Part shown: piece by piece, positions 29,376 through 51,859 of the stretch
Layout: each line of letters opens with the position of its first letter
Position numbering within the stretch: position 1 is the stretch's first letter
Assembly: GCA_039815185.1 (NCBI GenBank)
Contig: JBCBZT010000040.1
Location: 1-64,000, forward strand
DNA: 64,000 nt
Reading direction: 5' to 3'
Source of the DNA: Cyanobacteria bacterium P01_A01_bin.123
GTDB taxonomy: Bacteria > Cyanobacteriota > Cyanobacteriia > Phormidesmidales > Phormidesmidaceae
Program-made: the position numbers and the translations under genes
Notes under the pieces: generated by a model
What the model saw: the letters and a program-made list of their open reading frames with translations, nothing else
Told to the model about the DNA's origin: nothing
The model's database searches: none

Positions 29376-30134
29376 CTAATCGCAAAATTGGCCCCAGTAT
29401 TGCCCCAGCGCCTCTTGAGCTATTTTGGCATCCATCTGATCATCCCCCAACCAAACCACATGTCTCAAGAATTGGCAGGCGGCCTTGGATTGAGCTTCAT
29501 CCAACAGATCAAAATATTGCTGTTTCCAATCCTTTGAACTCTTATAGGTAAAGAAGCTGTAAATTGTGGAATCAACCGTGTTTGACTCGGTAGTGTCGTA
29601 GTGCTTCAGCACCCAAATCATATAGGCCGGGAGATAGTACCGAAATCCCTTGGGATCGACAAAATTGAGAATTTCATAGAACTCGGCAATCCATTCATCT
29701 GGCACTTCCCACCAATGGGTATCGGTGTCGAGCAGACGAGCCTGGGCTTCTTCTTCAGGGCTCCCATAGTCGTCAATGACTCGGGCTTGGTGAAGCGAAA
29801 CACCATCCTCCCGCAGGACGTTTGAAAATGCGTCCGTAATCGTTTGAATCAAGGCTGTTTTACGGTCTTCTTCTTGATAATCTATGGTTTTCCAGCCTGG
29901 AGGTCTCGTTTCTTCAGCAGTTGGCGATCGCACATCATCACGCCAGTCAGGCTCACAAGCTCCCAAACTAAGGAAGTTCCGCTGCGCTTGCCTCACTGAC
30001 ATCTGGTTAGAGCTCCATTCCCACTCGTCAGGGGCATCTTCCCAAAAACAGACGGGGCAAATTTCCCAGGTGCCAGGGGGCGGTTGGGTCAGGGTCTGAT
30101 AGCCGCAACAGCGACATGGGTAACGAGCAGTCAT
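29376..30134 (-). CDS. CPCC-family cysteine-rich domain fused to a DUF6714-like domain
   Basis: CRCCG...ICPVCFWED...SNQMSVRQAQRNF; then DGVSLHQA...DDY...FVDPKGFRYYLPAYM. Confidence 0.7.
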   Translation of the reverse strand: MTARYPCRCCGYQTLTQPPPGTWEICPVCFWEDAPDEWEWSSNQMSVRQAQRNFLSLGACEPDWRDDVRSPTAEETRPPGWKTIDYQEEDRKTALIQTITDAFSNVLREDGVSLHQARVIDDYGSPEEEAQARLLDTDTHWWEVPDEWIAEFYEILNFVDPKGFRYYLPAYMIWVLKHYDTTESNTVDSTIYSFFTYKSSKDWKQQYFDLLDEAQSKAACQFLRHVVWLGDDQMDAKIAQEALGQYWGQFCD

Positions 30135-30362: not shown

Positions 30363-30390
30363 GGTGACTGATCAGAGGTAACTGATCAGA
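30363..30390. repeat. 14-bp tandem repeat with palindromic core CTGATCAG (possible operator)
   Basis: GGTGACTGATCAGA followed by GGTAACTGATCAGA, 35 bp upstream of the 30425 ORF. Confidence 0.4.
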
Positions 30391-30424
30391 AGTAATGCAG
30401 ATTGTTTAACTCAAAGGATTCTGT

Positions 30425-30775
30425 ATGTCAGAGATTCAAAAGTTTGTGGTTAAGGATAACGGCGAGGAGTACGAGTTCTATATTGAACCGGGGGCACTTG
30501 CAGCCGTCGAAACGGATGAAGAGGGTGACTACCGCGACATCAGTTTGCCTACGATTGATATGAAAAAGGTGCACCAAACCATTCGCGGTTATGCCAGGTA
30601 TGCCGTGGGTGCTTTTATTAACTTTGGTTTGGCTGAAATTGAAGAAATGAACCTAGAGTTCAACCTTAAGATTTCTGGAAAGGCGGGTATGCCGATTTTG
30701 GCTGAAGGATCTGCTAAAGGATCTTTCAAGGTTCAGGTCAAGTGTAAGTTCCCTGACAATGCAGCGAAGGGATAA
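30425..30775 (+). CDS. Trypco1/CU044_2847-like protease co-occurring small protein
   Basis: 116 aa; acidic N-terminus; C-terminal alternating beta-hairpin EMNLEFNLKISGKAGMPILAEGSAKGSFKVQVKCKF; directly upstream of a caspase. Confidence 0.65.
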   Translation: MSEIQKFVVKDNGEEYEFYIEPGALAAVETDEEGDYRDISLPTIDMKKVHQTIRGYARYAVGAFINFGLAEIEEMNLEFNLKISGKAGMPILAEGSAKGSFKVQVKCKFPDNAAKG

Positions 30776-30910
30776 AGTCTTGGGTTGCCCAGTTTAAGAT
30801 GGGTCCACTTGATACCCCAACCCCACTCCATTGAAAAACTTGTTTGCAGTTTAAGGAAAAGCTGTGGGTTCGGGTGTGGCTAAGGCTTAGATTGTTTCAA
30901 CATCAGGGTC

Positions 30911-33208
30911 ATGGCAAAGTACGCACTTGTAATTGGGATCGATCGGTACGACAACTTTAGCAATCTAAAAAGTGCGGCAAACGATGCAGAGGCGGTGGCT
31001 CAACTGTTGGAGCAGCAGCAGTATCAGGTAACGCGACTGCCCAGAAAACTGGTAGGAGAAAATCAGTGGGCGATCGCCCCAGATAAACCCCTCACGCGAT
31101 CTGGACTCAGCAAAGAACTCAAGTCCTTTTTTCTGGAACGGGCAAAATATCAGGATGTAGTGCTTTATTTTGCGGGGCATGGCTTCCGCGTCTCTGATTC
31201 GTTAACTGGGGACGAGGAAGGCTATCTGGCCCCTTCTAATGCCACAAAAGACGGTCAGAACGGGATTCCATTTGACTCCCTCAACAAACTCATTAGCCAG
31301 TCCGAACTGAGCAGTCTGGTGGTATTGATGGACTGCTGCTATGCCGGGGCACTGCTGGAGGAACAGCAAAAACTGCTAGAACCCACCCAGACCACCCTCA
31401 GCCGTAAGCAAAATTCCTGTCTGATCGCGGCCTGTCGGGATTTTGAGCGGGCTAGAGAGGGCAAAGACCATGGGATCTTTACCACTGCAGTCCTGAAGGG
31501 ATTGTCGGCAGAGAATGCGGTGCAGGGTACGGTGACCAGCAATGATTTGTTTGGCTTTGTAGACCGGGAACTGCGAAACAGCGGACAAGAGGTGATCCAT
31601 GCGGGCATGGGTAGCGCGATCGCCCTCGTTCACCATCCCGATCAGCCTGTCCCAACCCAAACAGCACCGACTCAAGCGGCAAAAGTTTTCATTGGCTACC
31701 GCGATGAATCCCCCGATCGAGATTTGGCGGAAACGTTTTATCAAGAGCTTAAAGCTGCGGGCCACGAGGTGTTTATGGCCGCAGAAAGTATTCGCTTGGG
31801 AGATAACTGGCCACAGCGCATTAACCAGGAATTAGAGCAGTGTGATTATTTTTTACTGTTGCTGTCACCCCAATCGGCCATTAGCGAAATGGTGACCAAG
31901 GAGGTACGACGGGCGAAAAAATTACGGGAAACTCGTGGTTCTAGAAAACCAGGGTTACTGCCCATTCGAGTTAACTTCCCGCTCAATGTCGCGCTCAATT
32001 ATGACCTGCAAGGGTATCTTGATTCGATTCAGCAGCGGGAATGGCACTCTCCCGGTGATACGCCCCAGATTTTGCAGGAGATTTTGACCATCCTGGCTGA
32101 AGGCAAAATAGCTGATCCTGTAGAACCAGCCACTGCTTCAGAACCGCTAACGGAGCATCCCGATAGCCCCCCAGTACCCGTTGCCCCACCGGAATTACCG
32201 GGGGGTCAGGTGGATTTGTTATCCCTTTATTACGTAGAACGGCCCCCCACAGAAGCGAACTGTTATGAAACGGTGTTGAAGCCAGGGGCATTGATTCGCA
32301 TTAAGGCGTCTCGGCAGATGGGCAAGACCTCTCTGATGTCGCGGATTTTGCGGCATGCCAACGAAAACCAATGCCTGACCATACCCCTAAGTTTTCAACT
32401 GGCGGATGCGGCGATTTTTGCCGATTTAGATAAATTTCTGAAGTGGTTTTGCGCCAGCGTGGGGCGGCGCTTGCGCTTACCCAATAAGCTCGCTGACTAT
32501 TGGGATGAAATTTTTGGGGTTAAGGATAACTGTACGGCCTACTTTGAAGAATATCTGTTGCCCGAAATTTCTAAGCCCTTAGTGCTGGGGCTAGATGAAG
32601 TGGACATGGTGTTTGAGCATCCCAATATCGCAGCGGATTTCATGGGATTGCTGCGGGCCTGGCATGAGTCATCAAAAACCAATGAGCTATGGAAGAAACT
32701 GCGACTGGTGGTGGTACATTCCACGGAAGTTTATATCCCGATGGATATCAATCAGTCGCCGTTTAATGTGGGGCTGCCGATTGAGTTGCAAGAGTTTACC
32801 CCGGCCCAAGTGCTGGATCTGGCCCAACGACATGGACTGAGCTGGGGTGAAGCAGACGTAGCACGGTTAATGGCGATGGTGGGGGGCCATCCCTATCTGG
32901 TACGGGTGGCGTTGTATCAGGTGGCCCGCCAAGAAACCACGCTAGATCAGCTGCTGAGCGTTGCCCCCACCGAGGCTGGCCCCTACGGGGATCATCTGCG
33001 TCGCCATTGGTGGAATTTAGAACAGCGGCCAGAGATGGCCGAGGCGGCTAAGCGGGTGATTGCCTCGGCTAGCCCAGTTCGGTTGGAACCTGTCCAGGCG
33101 TTTCAATTACACAGTATGGGCATTGTGCATTTGCAAGGGAACGAGGTAATGCCCCGGTGTGATTTGTATCGGCAATATTTTGGCGATCGCTTGAATGTAA
33201 AGCGATAA
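30911..33208 (+). CDS. Caspase-family (C14) protease-TIR-AAA_35 STAND-like ATPase
   Basis: YFAGHG/MDCC dyad; TIR from VFIGY... to EMVTKEV; Walker A ASRQMGKTS; Walker B GLDEVD; SPFNVG; GGHPYL. Confidence 0.9.
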   Translation: MAKYALVIGIDRYDNFSNLKSAANDAEAVAQLLEQQQYQVTRLPRKLVGENQWAIAPDKPLTRSGLSKELKSFFLERAKYQDVVLYFAGHGFRVSDSLTGDEEGYLAPSNATKDGQNGIPFDSLNKLISQSELSSLVVLMDCCYAGALLEEQQKLLEPTQTTLSRKQNSCLIAACRDFERAREGKDHGIFTTAVLKGLSAENAVQGTVTSNDLFGFVDRELRNSGQEVIHAGMGSAIALVHHPDQPVPTQTAPTQAAKVFIGYRDESPDRDLAETFYQELKAAGHEVFMAAESIRLGDNWPQRINQELEQCDYFLLLLSPQSAISEMVTKEVRRAKKLRETRGSRKPGLLPIRVNFPLNVALNYDLQGYLDSIQQREWHSPGDTPQILQEILTILAEGKIADPVEPATASEPLTEHPDSPPVPVAPPELPGGQVDLLSLYYVERPPTEANCYETVLKPGALIRIKASRQMGKTSLMSRILRHANENQCLTIPLSFQLADAAIFADLDKFLKWFCASVGRRLRLPNKLADYWDEIFGVKDNCTAYFEEYLLPEISKPLVLGLDEVDMVFEHPNIAADFMGLLRAWHESSKTNELWKKLRLVVVHSTEVYIPMDINQSPFNVGLPIELQEFTPAQVLDLAQRHGLSWGEADVARLMAMVGGHPYLVRVALYQVARQETTLDQLLSVAPTEAGPYGDHLRRHWWNLEQRPEMAEAAKRVIASASPVRLEPVQAFQLHSMGIVHLQGNEVMPRCDLYRQYFGDRLNVKR

Positions 33209-33296
33209 ATGTAAAAGGAGATGGCGATGATTTTCGCCGCCATCAGGATTTTGAAGCGTTTTGCCCAATTAGCGATTCAAGTCTACCGAGGGGAGC

Positions 33297-36200
33297 ATGA
33301 ACTACGACTACCAGGTGGGGGGCAGTTTGCCCGCCGATGCACCGAGCTATGTGAAGCGACAGGCGGATGATGACCTGTATGAGCAGCTAAAAGCAGGCGA
33401 GTTTTGCTATGTGCTGAACTCGCGGCAGATGGGCAAATCGAGTCTGCGGGTGCAGGTGATGCAGCGTTTAGCCGACGACGGTGTGGCCTGTGCGGCCCTT
33501 GATCTGACCCAGATTGGCGGGGGGGCCAACATCACCGCTGACCAATGGTATGCCGGAATCGTGCGCAAACTCTGGAGCAGCTTTCATCTGAGCAGCCAAG
33601 TTAACCTCCGCCAGTGGTGGCGCGAGCGGGATGAACTTTCTTCAGTCCAGCGGTTTAGTGAATTTATTGAAACGGTTTTGCTGACGGCCCTGGCTCAGCC
33701 GATCGCAATCTTCATCGACGAAATCGACACCATTCTCAGTCTGCCTTTCGCCCCAGACGACTTTTTTACGCTGATTCGCAACTGCTATAACCAGCGGGCG
33801 GATAACCCTGCCTATCATCGCCTCACTTTCTGCTTTCTCGGTGTGGCTACCCCTGCCGATTTGATGCAAGACAAGCTGCGGACACCCTTTAATATTGGTC
33901 ACGGGATTTCTCTTTGTGGCTTTAAGTGTGATGAGGCTCAACCGCTAATTCCGGGGCTCCAGAGCAATGCCGACCGCCCCAATGCTGTACTTGAGGCAAT
34001 TTTGCATTGGACGAGTGGACAACCCTTCTTGACTCAAAAGCTCTGTTGCTTGGCGCGATCGCTGCCGTTTATTTCATCAGATCAGGAAAAGGAAGCGATT
34101 GGTCAACTGGTGCAAACCCGCATTATTGACAATTGGGAAGCCCAGGACGATCCGGAGCATTTGAAGACGATCCGCGATCGCTTGTTGAGCAATGAAGCGA
34201 CCCAGGGCCAACGGCTGGGGCTATATCAGCAGATTTTATCCGGTGAGGCGGTTCCGGCTGACAGCAGCCGTGAGCAGATGGATTTGCGGCTTTCTGGGGT
34301 GGTGGTGGAGCGCGATCGCAGGCTATACCCCCACACGCCGATTTATGCCGCGATCTTGTCTGAAGCTTGGGTCAAGTCGGCACTGGCGAATCTGCGTCCC
34401 TACAGTGAGGAGATTGAGGCTTGGTTGCAAAGCGACCGACAGGCCGATGACCATCTGCTGCATGGTGAAAAGCTGGAGGCGGCGTTGGAGTGGGCCGAAT
34501 CGCGGAGTTTGAGCAAGCAGGATTATCAGTATTTGGTTGAAAGCCAAAAGCTGGGGTTGCGGCAAGAGCTAGAGCAAAGCAGAGCTGATCTCAATCAAAC
34601 CAATCAACAGCTTTCAGAACGGAATCAACGTCTCCATCAGGTTGATCGTGATCTAGACAGCGCCAGACATGAACTGAGCCAAGCGCAACGGTTTACTCGT
34701 CGGGCGACGAAAATAGGTGTGGGCGTAATTTGTTTTATGGCAGTGTGGGCGGCTGGCGCATCGGTTTTGACAGGGCAACAGGTTGCCCAAAGGAACAAGG
34801 CTTATGCCGACAGGAACGAGGCTGTTGCCGAAAGGGACAAGGCTTATGCCGACAGGAACGATGCCTATGCTGACGCTACGAAAATGCGAGATGAAAATCA
34901 GGATCTACGCGCAGATTATCAAAAGATTGACAAGGAAATAACAGATGCCAGAGAACAATTGGCCGAAACCGATGATGACTTACAGGCAACAAAAGGAGCC
35001 TTAGCGTCTGCGGAGGCAGACCTGACAGCGGCCCAAAGCGAGGCGGATAGGGCACAGCGCAATGCCGATCAAGCCCAAGCCGCAGCCGATCAAGCGCAGA
35101 AGGAGGCTGATGAAGCGAAAAGAGCAGCTGATGAAGCCCAAGCTAAGGCTGAGAAAGCGCAGAGAGCAGCTGATGAGGCTAGCGATAGAGCTATACTACT
35201 GGGTCTCAATTTAGAGGATGTGATTCCGATGACCGAAGCGGTGATGGCATTTGCCGGCAAGGGGGCGGAAGAGCGTGCTGAGGCAATCGCACAACTTGAC
35301 GAGATTTTAGAGAATAATCAATCAGCGGGGAATCCGAGAAACTCTACTGTCTTAATTGTGCGTGGTGAGTTCCATCGGCAAAACGACAACTATGATCTAG
35401 CGCTTCAAGATTTTGATGACGTCATTGCCATTGACGAGCGCAATTCTATTGCTCACTTTGGACGAGGCAACACCTTAGCAGATCAGAAGAACTGGGAAGA
35501 GGCGATCGCGGCCTATGATAGGGCCATTGCTATTAACTCAGATTACCATCTAGCCCATATGAACCGAGGCAATGCTTTAGCAAGCAACGGTCAGTTTATT
35601 CAGGCAATTGAGGCCCATAATACGGCAGTCAGTCTAGTACAAGACGACCGAACAATTGCTAACCTAAGAGAAACCCTTGATAGCTTAATCGAAGTCTGGG
35701 CAGGGGGTGCAAATGTTTCGCTTGGGGCCAGTTTTGCAGGTACTGTGGGCGGAGATTCAAACGATAATGAGAATAGTTCAGAGCGTGACAACCGTGATCG
35801 TTTGCCAACAAATCGGTTAAGAAATACATTAAATTTAAATGAGAGTGATGCAACAGTCATTACAGTTAGCATCGACCTAATCGAGCTGTATGCTGATGGA
35901 AAAACAGCAACAGGGGTATGGCATTATCGAGGTTTTTCTGCCTTGATCACACAAAGCTATTCAGATGCTATTGGGCATTTGAATTCGGCCCTCAGTGAGA
36001 CCATCAGTCCCTCTCCGTCACCAGAACAGCAATATATTTCGCATGTTTTGCGTGGCATTGCTTACGGACGCCAATCCAACTGGGAAGCAGCTATAAGCGA
36101 CTTTAGCGAAGCAGTTGGCCTCAACAATGAATCGGCAATCGCTTATTACGAACGTGGCAATGCTTTCACAGCCCAGGGAAATTTTGAGTCGGCCCTTGCC

Positions 36201-38252
36201 GATTACATTGCAGCTACCGAACGGGCTCCCCAAAATGACGCTTTCTTTCGCCAGCGGAATGAAACGCTCTTATCTCTCAGGGGGCAAGAAGGGGCGATTG
36301 CCGAGCTCACCCAAGCCATTGAGCAAAATCCCAAAAATTCCCTGGTCTACTATGCGAGAGCAAATTTTCTCACGTTCCTGGGTGGTATGGGTAATTTCGA
36401 TGTTCCCGTTGATATTGCTAATCCTGAAGGTACGATCGAATTCAATGCTGATGAGACCATTGCCGACTATACTCGCGCTCTCGCACTCAATGCCGACTAT
36501 ACGTTTATCTATCGCGATCGCGCCAATGCACGTCTTCGGCGGAGGGATATAGACGGTGCCATTGCCGATTTTGGTCTTGCAATTGAGCTTAATTCAGAAG
36601 ATGCAGCAGACCCATCCATCTACATCGAGCGTGCCCGTGCTTTCCAGTCCCAGGGGGATACAGAGGCAACTATTGCTGATTACAACCGCGCGGTCGAATT
36701 AGCACCCCCAACCAACAGCTTTTATTATGAGCGAAACGATATGCTCCTAGAGCTTAGAGGTCCAGAATTGGCCCTAGCAGAACTGACCCAAGCCATCGAG
36801 CACAATCCCCAAGATGCCCTAGCCTACTATGCACGAGGCGATTTCCATCTGCTGACTGGTGATGTTGACGGTGCTCTTGCCGATTTTGACCGAGCCATTG
36901 CCCTCAATTCTCAAATTGCATTCATTTATCGCGATCGCGCCAATGCTCGCCGAGCGTCGGGAAATATTGAGGGCGCTCTCGCCGATCTTGACCAAGTGAT
37001 TGCTCTCAATCCTCAAGAGCCTGACTTGTATTTCGAGATCGCAAGTCTACGCCGAGAGCTAGGAGATGAAGCCGGAGCTCTGGCTATTCTTGACCAAGCC
37101 ATCACCCTCAATCCCCAAAATTCAAACTTCTATTTCGAGAATGCCAATTTACGCCGACAGCGAGGGGATATAGAGGGCGCCATTGCTGTTATTGACCAAG
37201 CGATCGCACTCAATCTCCCAGATCCATACTTCTATATTGAAGCCGCCAATCTACGCCAAGTGCTAGGAGATGAAGCTGGGGCCCTGGCTATTCTTGAGCA
37301 AGCGATCGCCCTCAATCCCCAAAATCCAAACTTCTATTTCGAGAGCGCCAATTTACGCCGACAGCTAGGAGATGAAGCTGGGGCTTTGGCTGTGCTTGAC
37401 CAAGCGATCGCACTCAATCCTCAGAATCCATTGGTCTATATTGAGGCCGCCAATCTGCGCCAACAGCTAGGGAATATTGAGGAAGCCATTGCTGTGCTTG
37501 ACCAAGCGATCGCACTCAATTCTCAGGAGCCAGACCTCTATTATGAGCGTGCCAGTTTACGCCGAGAGCTGGAAGATTTTGAGGGAGCTAGTGCCGATTT
37601 TGATCAGGCTACTGCACTTTCAACCCAAGGGCCATCCGTTGACAGCAACCCCGTAGATCCGTCTATCTATTACGAACAGGCCAATTTCCTCTTTTCCTTG
37701 GGGGACATAGCAGGGGCCATTACTGCTTACACTCGCGCCATCGAACTCAACCCTGCAAATTCATCTGCCTATTACAGTCGCGCTAATTTTCTCTTATCTC
37801 AAGGGGATTTCCGGGGTGCCGTTGCCGATTTCAATCGCGTCATTGAGTTGGATGAAAGTGATACCTATGCGATCGCAGGTCGAGGGGAAGCTTATTACCA
37901 ATTGGGACACTATGAAGAGGCATTGGCTGACTTCAATCATGCTATTGAAATCAATGGGAATAATGCCTATGCGATCGCCAACCGTGGCGCAACCTATCTC
38001 CAAATAGGAAGTGACCAAGATGCCCTTGCTGATTTTGACCGTGCGCTCGAAATTACCAATGGTATCCTCGAAGAGAATGCGGAAGATTTTTGGGCGATCG
38101 CTGATCGGGGCAAAACCTATCGTTTCATGGGACACTTTGATGAAGCCATAGCTGACTTCAGACGGGCATTAGAACTCGAACCCAATAACGCATCCGATAG
38201 GGCAGTGGTTCAAACAGAACTTGAAAAAGCCCAACAAGGAATTAGCCAATAG
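33297..38252 (+). CDS. AAA_35 STAND-like ATPase-TM-coiled coil-TPR array protein
   Basis: YQVGGSL...[28 protein letters not shown] and GQPFLTQ; hydrophobic segment at ~34713-34775; heptad repeats; roughly 20 TPR-like units. Confidence 0.9.
34791..34874 (+). repeat. Four 21-bp coding tandem repeats (heptads)
   Basis: AGGAACAAGGCTTATGCCGAC-like units encoding [28 protein letters not shown]. Confidence 0.85.
36900..37615 (+). repeat. Seven 102-bp TPR-coding tandem repeats
   Basis: 34-aa units ALNPQ...Y.E.ANLRR.LG...GA.A.LDQAI with strong DNA similarity. Confidence 0.9.
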
Positions 38253-47914: not shown

Positions 47915-49048
<1,134 letters not shown>

Positions 49049-49234: not shown

Positions 49235-51859
49235 ATGAAAAAGGTTGCACTGCTGATTGGGGTGAGTGAATACGAACCGGGTTTGACCCCGTTGCCCGGT
49301 GCCCTCAAAGATATCGAAGCACTGCAACAGGTCTTGGTGCATCCAGAGATGGGTGGCTTTGCTGAGACGGATATTACTGTGTTGCCCAATCCGCAAAGAC
49401 AGCAGATGGAAGATGCCATCTATGATCTGTTTGCGAATCGCCAGAAAAACGATCTAATCCTGCTCTTTTTCTCAGGGCATGGTGTCAAAAATGATCAAGG
49501 CAAGCTTTTCCTGACGACACGTGAAACCTATAAGACCCAGCGAGGAGAACTCCGCCCGACTAGCGCAGTTCGAGCTAGCTTTGTCCATGAACAAATGACG
49601 AATAGCCGTTCAAAACGGCAGATTGTCATTTTAGATAGCTGCTTTAGCGGCGCTTTTGCCGAGGGGATGGCGGCTAAGGATGATGGCAAGGTAGATCTCA
49701 AAGCCCAACTCGGCGGCGAAGGTCGGGCAGTGTTGGCCTCTTCTAGTTCGGTGCAATATTCGTTTGAGCAGGAAGGCGAAGATCTGTCGATTTATACCCG
49801 CTATCTCATTGAAGGGATTCAAACCGGGGCGGCGGATGCCAATGAGGATGGCCATATCTCTATCGATGAGCTGCACGAGTATGCCCGCCGCAAGGTGGCT
49901 GAAGCAGCCCCAGCCATGACGCCAGAAATTTATGCGGTGAAGGAGGGCTATAAGATTCACTTGGCCAACGCCCCCATGGGTGATCCCAAGTTGGAGTATC
50001 GCAAAGAGGTAGAGCGCCGTGTGCAGAATGGCAAAATTTCAGGAATTGGCAAGCGCATCCTCAAAAGGCGACAGGAGGAACTGGGACTTTCGGCTGAGGA
50101 AGCTAAAGCGATTCAAGATACGGTATTAGAGCCCTTCAAAAAGTATCAGGCAAGTCTTCAAGAATACAAAGAGGCTTTGGCAGAAGCGTTAGAAGAGTTT
50201 GGAGGACAGTTTGATGAATTTACCCTCAATGAATTGAAGCGGTTTCAGGCAATGTTGCGATTGCGGGATGAGGATGTTCGAGCGATAGAGGCAGTAGTTG
50301 TGCCTCAGCAGATAAGGGAGGAGGTGTCTCCTGAAATATCTCAGCCAGTAGAGCAAAAAGTATCTACTGTCTCTGTTCAAGAACCGCAATCTACAGGGAA
50401 TTTAACAGAGGATGATCTCAGTTCTGAGAAAGGCGTTGATTACACCAAATTACGAGACTTGCTAAAAGTAGGGCAGTGGAAAGATGCCGATCGAGAAACT
50501 TATCAAATCATGGATCAAGTTTTGAATGAAGACTGGTCTAGAGAAGCATTGCTTAACTTCCCCTGTAAAGATTTGCTGATGATTGATCGGCTTTGGGCGA
50601 AATATAGCGACGATAAATTCGGCTTTAGTGTACAGAAAAAAATCTATGCCGATTGCGGTGCTAACCTCAACGGGAAATACCCAGGTGATAAGATCTGGTA
50701 CGCTTTTTGCGAACAAGTTGGCTGGCGTAAGAATAGAAAATGGGTTAACGCGAAATACTCAACAAAAGCACCAGAAGGTCATCTCCCTGGAGCGTTGAGG
50801 GAATTGGCAGGGTATTACGGGGTATGTTGGGGAGTGTATCTCTTCTCTTGTATTCAGACTTGTGATGATGATCTCAGTTCTGAACAAGGCATCGACTATA
50901 CAAAATTACGAAACTTGCTAAAAGCAGGTCAATGGCAAGAAGCCGATGAAGAAACTTACGAAGTAATGAATCAAGTTTTGGACGGAAATTGGTCTCATCA
51001 TGCACTGATTAAATTTTCCTGTAAGGATTTGCTAACCATTGATCGACTTTGGGTGAAATACAGTGATGGCAAGTTCGGCTTTAGTGTACAGCAGGAAATC
51101 TATGTCACCTGCGGTGCGAAGACTGATGAGAATCGCCCAGGCGATAAAGTTTGGTATGCGTTTTGCACCAAGGTTGGTTGGCTTAAGGTTAATGAGTGGA
51201 TTGCTATGAAGTTCACGATAAAAGCACCAAAGGGACATCTCCCCGGTTTAGGATTTGGGGTTAATACTTTTTGGGGAGGATTTCGATTTAATAGTGGATT
51301 CTTTTCTCTTGCATCCAGACTCGCGAAATGTAACCCAACAACTGTATCTCAGTCAGCAAGAAGAGAAGTGTATGCTTCTTCTATTCGGGAAGAGCAAAAT
51401 CCACATGATTCAACGGGTGATGATCTTATTTCTGAACAAGGCATCGACTATACAAAATTACGAAACTTGCTAAAAGCAGGTCAATGGCAAGAAGCCGATA
51501 AAGAAACTTACAAAGTAATGAATCAAGTTTTAGATGGAAACTCGTCTAGAGACGCATTTCTCAACTTTCCTTGCAAGGATTTGCTAACTATTGACAGACT
51601 GTGGGTGAAATATAGTAGAGGTAAGTTTGGCTTTAGTGTGCAGAAGCAAATCTATATTGCCTGCGGAGCTACAATCGATGGTACATATCCAGATAACGAA
51701 ATTTGGTATGCGTTTTGTGAAACGGTCGGCTGGCGCGTGAATGGCAATTGGGCAACTTTAAAATTCACCCTGAAGTCGCACAGGGGACATCTCCCATGCC
51801 GTCATTCTTATTCGTTAGCCAGAAAAAACATTCTCCTTTTCACAAATCAGTACTTGTGA
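49235..51859 (+). CDS. Caspase-family (C14) protease with three GUN4-like domains
   Basis: FFSGHG/ILDSC dyad; three DDL.SE.G.DYTKLR.LL..GQW..AD.ET...IDRLW..YS..KFGFSVQ...GHLP units. Confidence 0.9.
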   Translation: MKKVALLIGVSEYEPGLTPLPGALKDIEALQQVLVHPEMGGFAETDITVLPNPQRQQMEDAIYDLFANRQKNDLILLFFSGHGVKNDQGKLFLTTRETYKTQRGELRPTSAVRASFVHEQMTNSRSKRQIVILDSCFSGAFAEGMAAKDDGKVDLKAQLGGEGRAVLASSSSVQYSFEQEGEDLSIYTRYLIEGIQTGAADANEDGHISIDELHEYARRKVAEAAPAMTPEIYAVKEGYKIHLANAPMGDPKLEYRKEVERRVQNGKISGIGKRILKRRQEELGLSAEEAKAIQDTVLEPFKKYQASLQEYKEALAEALEEFGGQFDEFTLNELKRFQAMLRLRDEDVRAIEAVVVPQQIREEVSPEISQPVEQKVSTVSVQEPQSTGNLTEDDLSSEKGVDYTKLRDLLKVGQWKDADRETYQIMDQVLNEDWSREALLNFPCKDLLMIDRLWAKYSDDKFGFSVQKKIYADCGANLNGKYPGDKIWYAFCEQVGWRKNRKWVNAKYSTKAPEGHLPGALRELAGYYGVCWGVYLFSCIQTCDDDLSSEQGIDYTKLRNLLKAGQWQEADEETYEVMNQVLDGNWSHHALIKFSCKDLLTIDRLWVKYSDGKFGFSVQQEIYVTCGAKTDENRPGDKVWYAFCTKVGWLKVNEWIAMKFTIKAPKGHLPGLGFGVNTFWGGFRFNSGFFSLASRLAKCNPTTVSQSARREVYASSIREEQNPHDSTGDDLISEQGIDYTKLRNLLKAGQWQEADKETYKVMNQVLDGNSSRDAFLNFPCKDLLTIDRLWVKYSRGKFGFSVQKQIYIACGATIDGTYPDNEIWYAFCETVGWRVNGNWATLKFTLKSHRGHLPCRHSYSLARKNILLFTNQYL

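Follow-up and report, generated by a model that had tools for sequence, protein, structure and literature searches.

Introduction

The Streptomyces protein SsPepco is a death effector of the beta-barrel kind, switched on by a serine protease that is fused to a STAND protein, a signal transduction ATPase that has numerous domains, and in the accessible text of that report the contexts named for Pepco proteins include cysteine proteases and 'transmembrane STAND ATPases' (Evans 2025, 10.1101/2025.11.14.688446). Here we describe a three-gene locus at positions 30425 to 38252 of a 64,000-nucleotide stretch (hereafter the window; contig JBCBZT010000040.1 of assembly GCA_039815185.1, Cyanobacteria bacterium P01_A01_bin.123), in which a small Pepco-type gene (gene 1) is followed by a gene for a caspase-TIR-ATPase protein (gene 2) and a gene for a paralogous ATPase with a tetratricopeptide repeat (TPR) array (gene 3). 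On balance, we lean towards the view that this cassette encodes a death switch that acts across the membrane, built from two STAND subunits and coupled to a Pepco pore.

The locus and its genes

The three open reading frames (ORFs) lie on the same strand, with gaps of 135 bp between genes 1 and 2 and 88 bp between genes 2 and 3. This layout agrees with an earlier note on the same DNA, made from the sequence alone; the Trypco1, caspase, TIR, AAA_35 and TPR domains that it named were all recovered by Pfam, and its motifs (FAGHG, MDCC and TKEV in gene 2, SRQMGK and DEID in gene 3) lie where it had placed them. The features are as follows.

30425-30775, + strand: gene 1, Trypco1-type Pepco, predicted latent pore-former, 116 residues (Pfam, NCBIfam, AlphaFold2)
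30530-30538, + strand: Y36-R37-D38, candidate activation site with the cut after R37 (from the sequence)
30911-33208, + strand: gene 2, caspase-like protease, TIR and AAA_35 type A, putative cytoplasmic executor, 765 residues (Pfam)
30917-31579, + strand: orthocaspase/metacaspase-like domain, H90-C143 dyad (alignment, PDB profile matches)
31685-32110, + strand: TIR domain, E331 at the catalytic position (Pfam TIR_2)
32198-33184, + strand: AAA_35 type A STAND-like ATPase with no sensor repeats (K472, D562-E563, invariant R582, GHP motif)
33297-38252, + strand: gene 3, AAA_35 type B, helical module, coiled coil, transmembrane helix, stalk and TPR array, 1651 residues
33321-34556, + strand: ATPase of AAA_35 type B, including a winged helix and a helical module (K47, D141-E142, R161)
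34704-34772, + strand: one predicted transmembrane helix (residues 470-492, approximately), preceded by basic residues (hydropathy)
34773-35216, + strand: coiled-coil/alanine-zipper stalk, about 150 residues (Pfam Alanine_zipper, E 3.6e-6; 21/42-bp repeats)
35217-38249, + strand: TPR array, fast-diverging, probably extracytoplasmic (Pfam TPR models, divergence)
36986-37588, + strand: recently amplified TPR block, 5.9 copies of 102 bp (tandem-repeat analysis)
30363-30395, no strand: 2.4 tandem copies of a 14-bp unit, upstream of gene 1

Contigs of one sequencing run, possibly not an independent one, reproduce the stretch without differences, and three further public DNA runs hold strain variants across the locus; the locus is thus no assembly artefact.

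Comparison with described systems

As far as the accessible text of Evans 2025 describes it, the SsPepco-SsAvs4 pair resembles this locus in having a small Pepco gene adjoining a STAND-fused protease, and SsPepco and gene 1 both combine an amphipathic helix with an alternating beta-hairpin. The helix of SsPepco lies at residues 10-17, however, whereas that of gene 1 follows a 45-residue N-terminal piece; SsPepco loses its C-terminal tail after Ile97 to a serine protease, whereas gene 1 has a conserved Arg in its linker; and SsAvs4 is a single chain, whereas the putative sensor is here a separate, predicted membrane protein. With Avs and other bacterial NLR-like STANDs, as portrayed in the accessible part of a recent study (Lee et al. 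2026, PMC13581612), the locus shares the STAND fold, N-terminal effectors, a TPR sensor and a predicted oligomerisation switch. It differs in that effector and sensor occupy two paralogous chains, with the sensor behind a predicted transmembrane helix, a split that is also found in relatives. Moreover, no PADLOC Avs model matched, and the fold of gene 3 is nearest to archaeal SSO1545 and PAB2304 rather than to Avs3 or Avs4.

The two-gene nSTAND2 systems likewise consist of a STAND gene pair in an operon with a predicted hetero-multimer, but the accessible text describes a partner with eroded NTP motifs together with GT4 or HEPN (Kaur et al. 2021, PMC8195603), whereas here both ATPases retain GK[ST] and DE, GT4 and HEPN are absent, and the effectors are a caspase, a TIR domain and a Pepco. 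Finally, the ternary MoxR-vWA systems place Trypco1 beside a peptidase in multicellular bacteria, according to the part of the source available (Kaur et al. 2020, PMC7159879). The locus in the window lacks MoxR, vWA, VMAP and iSTAND, yet the same Pepco-caspase module stands on an iSTAND-MoxR platform in a related locus (L058:10001-16192), which comprises a frameshifted Pepco, a caspase-iSTAND gene and a MoxR-like ATPase, and whose caspase is 81% identical to its counterpart. The genes downstream in L058 are the same as those downstream of the AAA_35 cassette at L052, a platform swap beneath one effector module, and in other loci the Pepco-caspase module is fused to nSTAND1 proteins.

Searches with PADLOC and NCBIfam gave single-domain matches below system cut-offs and named no known system at the locus, in line with the earlier note, whose author knew of no characterised counterpart. 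We found no published description of the Pepco-caspase-TIR-AAA_35 wiring or of an N-terminal Pepco cut, although one may stand in the supplementary tables of Lee 2026 or in figures or supplements to Evans 2025. The parts and the STAND-protease-Pepco logic are already known; what seems to be new is this wiring and the candidate N-terminal cut.

Gene 1 and its linkage to proteases

Gene 1 matched Trypco1 (PF19493) at 58 bits, against a cut-off of 24.6, and NCBIfam CU044_2847; going beyond the earlier note, the small protein is by its sequence a member of Pepco, a known family of pore-forming death effectors. In its AlphaFold2 model (mean predicted local distance difference test (pLDDT) 64, below 50 at linker residues 27-38), an N-terminal hairpin (residues 5-26) and an acidic linker precede an amphipathic helix (46-69; hydrophobic moment 0.54) and an alternating beta-hairpin (74-108) with charged and hydrophobic faces (ENENKSKG/MLFLIGAM and ESKSKQKKP/AGAGFVVCF). 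The helix and alternating hairpin have the shape predicted for a barrel-forming Pepco, and a fold search with the monomer model returned no clear match (best Z 5.1). We infer that SsPepco is of the Trypco2 type; five Trypco2 sequences judged by eye start with a helix and end in a tail, and a profile comparison of Trypco1 with one Trypco2 gave no alignment (1.1%).

The protein encoded by gene 2 consists of Peptidase_C14 (residues 3-223, 77 bits), TIR_2 (259-357, 74.7 bits) and AAA_35 (430-758, 505 bits), with FAGHG at 87, MDCC at 140, TKEV at 329, SRQMGK at 467 and DEVD at 562, and a hydropathy scan of the protein found no transmembrane segment. The catalytic Cys of the caspase is the second Cys of DCC (C143). 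H90, C143, D25 and D141 are invariant in 21 of 21 aligned sequences; D25 and D141 occupy the acidic S1-pocket positions, and the profile matches metacaspases and MALT1 in the PDB with these residues aligned. Orthocaspases prefer a basic P1 residue, according to the accessible part of the literature (PMC8283722), and by its dyad and S1 pocket the caspase of gene 2 is probably of the Arg/Lys-specific orthocaspase/metacaspase type.

Among genes for ATPases of the gene 2 type (type A, described below), a Pepco gene lies directly upstream of six of the eight that encode caspase-TIR proteins, all six that encode trypsin-TIR proteins and none of 108 others; at least 800 bp of upstream sequence was required, which excluded 14 of 136 distinct type-A proteins. 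The linker holds a motif that differs with the neighbouring protease. [RK][GD] was present in 39 of 40 caspase-adjacent Pepcos (shuffle mean 14.4, maximum 23 in 2000) and in 8 of 40 trypsin-adjacent ones (shuffle mean 13.5), and, reciprocally, [VI][SAG] was present in 39 of 40 trypsin-adjacent Pepcos (shuffle mean 28.4, maximum 37) and in 17 of 40 caspase-adjacent ones (shuffle mean 18.3), where the caspase-adjacent set includes the window copy, the patterns were chosen after the sequences had been viewed, and three rows, one with a frameshift and two truncated, were left out of the counts. Within gene 1 this motif is R37-D38. R37 is the sole basic residue between K10 and K47, and it divides an acidic piece (residues 1-38, net charge -9) from a remainder of +4. 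Only six residues, none of them Ile, follow the last strand motif, and the C-terminal tails of caspase-linked relatives are short and unconserved. We take R37-D38 as a candidate site for activation at the N-terminus, in contrast to the published cut at the C-terminus. The earlier suggestion that the small protein serves as a protease substrate is strengthened by the adjacency, the linker motif and the precedent in the accessible text of Evans 2025, and we consider gene 1 a likely substrate of the gene 2 protease.

Caspase-type Pepcos also occur with no protease within 700 bp, at L007:7410-7832 (contig C35 of the same genome) and 18 similar loci, and 18 of these 19 keep the [RK][GD] motif, so that cleavage in trans may occur. 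These 19 genes, the five Trypco1 genes and several further caspases of the window genome, and the abundance of TIR-bearing ATPase pairs devoid of protease or Pepco would all suit a loose assembly, in which gene 1 is a bystander or the substrate of another caspase and the ATPase pair signals mainly through TIR. We regard this as very improbable, since Pepco adjacency depends strictly on a caspase or trypsin domain, and the Pepco stays by this caspase clade in either orientation. With regard to orientation, 34 of 41 caspase-linked Pepcos lie on the strand opposite the protease, head-to-head where checked, and 40 of 40 trypsin-linked ones are co-oriented with it; in the clade of the window copy the Pepco has flipped to co-orientation, and we found no flanking inverted repeats that could explain the flip relative to the head-to-head relatives.

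The TIR domain may give a second output by degrading NAD, or it may act as an adaptor in assembly. E331 aligns weakly with the Glu of PDB 3h16 (E 0.43), and the catalytic Glu is kept in 28 of 31 aligned sequences. In TIR-type-A proteins with a putative N-terminal HTH (L101, L112 and L124), Gln replaces this Glu, which suggests a non-enzymatic TIR in regulatory members.

The paired AAA_35 ATPases

AAA_35 comprises two paralogous types, A (gene 2) and B (gene 3), which align at 99.8% by hhalign with 18% identity. The window genome carries six genes of each type, most of them adjoining. Of the 64 type-A genes flanked on each side by 3.5 kb of DNA, 51 had a type-B gene within 3 kb, a count biased high by the inclusion of loci found with type-B queries. 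In many of 51 A/B pairs compared, the gap is -8 to +5, so that A and B genes appear often to be translationally coupled. The variable domains of type A include HTH, TIR, CHAT-like, cyclase, kinase, GGDEF, trypsin and caspase domains, and those at the C-terminus of type B include WD40, TPR, GAF, HisKA, CHASE2, 7TM-HD and amidase domains. The pair is thus a common, multi-copy cyanobacterial signalling chassis, and not a rare one, a point that the earlier note did not foresee. Because other members of the pair carry regulatory domains, it is the Pepco-caspase module, rather than the ATPases, that suggests a role in immunity. The pair may correspond to the Npun2340/2341 family of the MNS clade, with which the fold matches given below are consistent. 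Leipe et al. reportedly noted in 2004 neighbouring, paralogous STAND genes of cyanobacteria with kinship to archaeal ATPases; that work is not known to show a function for them or to describe the Pepco-caspase wiring.

STAND NTPases are marked by a Lys-Ser/Thr in Walker A and an Asp-Glu in Walker B. In type A, G471-K472-T473 is conserved in 49 of 49 sequences, D562 in 47 and E563 in 43; in type B, G46-K47, D141-E142 and R161 are conserved in all 49. Both types have a substitution at the first P-loop Gly and otherwise keep the NTP-binding motifs. GxP motifs of the helical domain are found at G241-Q-P243 in gene 3 and G659-H-P661 in gene 2. The AlphaFold2 model of the gene 3 ATPase (pLDDT 91.5; residues 2-358) matched PAB2304 (Z 19.9, root-mean-square deviation (rmsd) 4.3, 314 residues aligned) and SSO1545 (Z 19.8, rmsd 4.4, 311 aligned), followed by resistosomes, Cdc6/Orc, CED-4 and Avs3. 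By this model, and by the homology of type A with type B, both ATPases bear the STAND marks: an AAA+ core, followed by the GxP helical domain and a winged helix.

The earlier note had proposed a split sensor/executor pair whose ATPases interact, and modelling supports this. Residues 1-420 of gene 3 docked with residues 426-765 of gene 2 at a score of 0.69, as compared with 0.00 for the best of three controls. This mark is attained by 116 of 157 solved pairs and 2 of 215 mismatched ones, a comparison that holds only roughly because alignments of our own were used. The runs share at least 80% of contacts, with a partner pLDDT of at least 84. In the model, the nucleotide face of B contacts a segment of A that bears an SPFN motif and R582, an invariant residue; type B has PFN and an invariant Arg, R161, in the equivalent places, which would make an alternating A/B ring possible. 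We conclude that the two ATPases probably bind each other. The predicted interface residues are barely more conserved than the rest (0.69 vs 0.66 and 0.70 vs 0.68). For 49 cognate A/B pairs, the identity matrices show a correlation (rho 0.71, against no more than 0.32 in shuffles) that shared descent alone can produce.

Gene 3 as a putative membrane sensor

Gene 3 matched AAA_35 at residues 9-351 (101 bits), with SRQMGK at 42 and DEID at 141, and many TPR models. A hydrophobic segment lies behind the ATPase module in 75 of 97 distinct type-B proteins. Domains of extracytoplasmic type, 7TMR-HDED or a peptidoglycan amidase, stand behind the segment in relatives, and CHASE2 occupies the C-terminal slot in others. 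Because it is placed behind a predicted transmembrane helix, the TPR array of gene 3 is probably extracytoplasmic, either periplasmic or thylakoid-luminal. The earlier note's idea of a TPR sensor partner stands, with the correction that the array is probably no cytoplasmic sensor of the NLR type.

The segment of the window copy is itself weak, with a Kyte-Doolittle maximum of 1.64 (residues 470-488, after RFTRR). Were it not membrane-spanning, the TPR array would bind a phage protein inside the cell, much as in Avs, with gene 2 acting as a helper NLR. Most sensors of bacterial STANDs are TPR-like, according to the accessible part of Lee et al. 2026 (PMC13581612), and in some type-B proteins, which have no such segment, the C-terminus is a cytoplasmic GAF or HisKA domain. 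We nevertheless consider cytoplasmic sensing quite unlikely, as the orthologues have stronger aligned segments (Kyte-Doolittle 1.63-2.69) with basic residues ahead, and the same slot holds extracytoplasmic domains in relatives.

The stalk that follows differs in length among strains and orthologues, with indels in run X4, and an atlas search with the transmembrane-stalk part gave scores that were all below 0.8. Beyond the stalk the protein diverges rapidly: nine type-B TPR proteins are 55-94% identical in pairwise comparisons of their first 420 residues, as against 25-36% behind the stalk, three close ones excepted (52-66%). An outward-facing, polymorphic repeat sensor with intragenic repeat amplification could also serve recognition of kin and non-kin between filaments, as in fungal heterokaryon incompatibility, with the TPR array reading a polymorphic surface protein of neighbours and killing on mismatch; kin recognition has been proposed for conflict systems of multicellular bacteria in the accessible text of one study (PMC10907252). 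To this reading we give only a slim chance: none of the loci examined has a linked polymorphic ligand gene, and the amplified TPR block, with a pN/pS of about 0.52, is under purifying selection, with positive selection not seen.

Distribution of the cassette

Full-length caspase-TIR-type-A proteins were found, across several genera, in 9 of the 173 family genomes, and in no other among 401 sampled genomes of the phylum at E 1e-30; 27 protein clusters among 78 matches contain them. All three genes occur together in the window and at L052, L054 and L280, the co-conservation on which the earlier note had made its reading depend, and in the orthologues gene 2 runs into gene 3 or stops just short of it (gaps -4 to +4). 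Several caspase-TIR-type-A loci end at contig borders. The cassette adjoins a TrwC relaxase at L054 and L280, and its neighbours at L052 are HNH, MazG, HEPN, PbeC-like and NACHT genes. It is therefore conserved but patchily distributed, and it is intact in a cultured strain, Nodosilinea nodulosa PCC 7104 (WP_017302166-168).

The same three-gene layout, with trypsin in place of the caspase, is found at L029-L031, L071, L150, L151 and L306. The last of these lies on plasmid pNsp_e of Nostoc sp. ATCC 53789 (L306:4016-10908), where Trypco1 and a trypsin-TIR-type-A gene accompany a type-B protein with a transmembrane segment and WD40, whose C-terminus is an N-acetylmuramoyl-L-alanine amidase domain; one type-B partner carries 7TMR-HDED after its transmembrane segment. 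At L052 (12742-17248), the gene 3 orthologue is split into two overlapping ORFs (1284 and 362 residues) by a frameshift in the TPR region or an assembly error, and at L051 the gene 2 orthologue is likewise broken into pieces. Relatives of gene 1 were not found in the phage records searched, nor relatives of the type-A ATPase in the viral contigs searched.

Surroundings of the locus

The 14-bp repeat upstream of gene 1 is altered in other strains and may be a regulator site. Promoter and terminator scans of the locus were at chance level (7 vs 8.1 and 8 vs 9.4), and folding of the intergenic gaps was no better than that of shuffles (z -0.5 and -0.6). A divergent gene at 29376-30134 (- strand) encodes Cys_rich_CPCC and DUF6714 domains and is not kept by the cassette in the relatives examined. 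The window holds a second caspase gene (49235-51859, + strand), fused to three GUN4 domains, with an intact H/C dyad and no adjoining Pepco; an IS110 transposase (47915-49036) lies just upstream of it. Elsewhere in the genome (C107:26221-33399, - strand), a 2392-residue ORF, whose start we take to resemble Tc-toxin B subunits, lies a few kb from an unpaired type-A gene.

Discussion

The data presented here, namely domain content, catalytic residues, co-occurrence, A-B docking and motif conservation, were read from sequences or models. On this basis, gene 3 would be anchored in the membrane, its stalk and TPR array lying outside the cytoplasm and its ATPase inside, bound to the paralogous ATPase of gene 2. 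A foreign or damage-associated ligand in the envelope, with phage entry proteins as a first guess, would bind the TPR array, and the A and B ATPases would cluster, as in other STANDs, bringing the caspase and TIR domains together. The Arg/Lys-specific caspase would then cut gene 1 after R37 and remove the acidic pro-piece ahead of the amphipathic helix; by analogy with SsPepco, the Pepco would form a beta-barrel pore in the cell's own membrane and kill the cell, with TIR either degrading NAD as a second output or serving as an adaptor for assembly. The attacked cell would thus be sacrificed within the filament. In this scheme the outward topology is likely, and we infer the ligand-driven clustering, the R37 cut, the pore formation, the TIR role and the defence purpose.

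Alongside the weak hydrophobic segment and the purifying selection on the amplified block, several observations weigh against such a switch. Caspase-type and trypsin-type Pepcos each occupy one side of a single branch in a quick tree, and because the classes split at one branch, the linker motif switch is one event kept in a hypervariable linker rather than repeated co-evolution. Two of the eight caspase-TIR-type-A loci (L067 and L072) have no adjoining Pepco, and at L053 the Pepco lies head-to-head and the partners are proteins with two transmembrane segments and 7TM-HD rather than TPR. Paralogous AAA+ domains may dock through likeness to solved rings, and the docking was modelled for the A-B hetero-pair. 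AAA_35 was found in 36 of 121 genomes of the phylum, with 34 of the 40 others in its class holding it against 1 of 80 from outside the class, a near-ubiquity within the class that typical defence genes do not show. Furthermore, most A+B pairs carry regulatory domains (GGDEF, GAF, HisKA, CHASE2, LuxR HTH and kinase), and the window copy is flanked by housekeeping, transport and signalling genes, with no defence island.

The last three observations, to which the cyclase and HD domains of other pairs and the multi-copy state of AAA_35 can be added, would fit an envelope-stress or developmental death switch with the same wiring, whose input is the cell's own state, such as wall damage, filament breakage or separation-cell formation. 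Stress roles for protease-effector modules are also raised in the accessible text of Evans 2025 (10.1101/2025.11.14.688446). We hold such an input to be unlikely: a self-signal would need no sensor that falls to about 30% identity while its ATPase keeps about 72%, and the distribution of the cassette is patchy and mobile.

Returning to the trans-membrane death switch that we favour, a broader version of it can be put forward tentatively, and we would rate its chances at less than even. In this version, A+B pairs are a kinase-free class of cyanobacterial trans-membrane receptors, and the present copy resembles a surface receptor coupled to an inflammasome, in which the outer, fast-evolving TPR array senses a phage or competitor ahead of its entry or as it enters, a hetero-oligomeric STAND ring fires the Arg-specific caspase and TIR, and the N-terminal Pepco cut is matched to the class of protease.

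To our knowledge, those bacterial STAND immune receptors that have been characterised do their sensing within the cell, with sensor and effector joined in a single chain. If our reading is true, bacterial pattern recognition would reach across the membrane by way of a split pair that monitors the periplasm and sets off a pore activated by a caspase. Cyanobacterial orthocaspases have long been tied to programmed death, and we know of no substrates for them; the locus would provide a concrete substrate and cut site (R37). The reciprocal linker motif predicts an activation site for many Trypco1 proteins, and removal of an N-terminal pro-piece would, if true, constitute a second mode of activation for the Pepco pore family.

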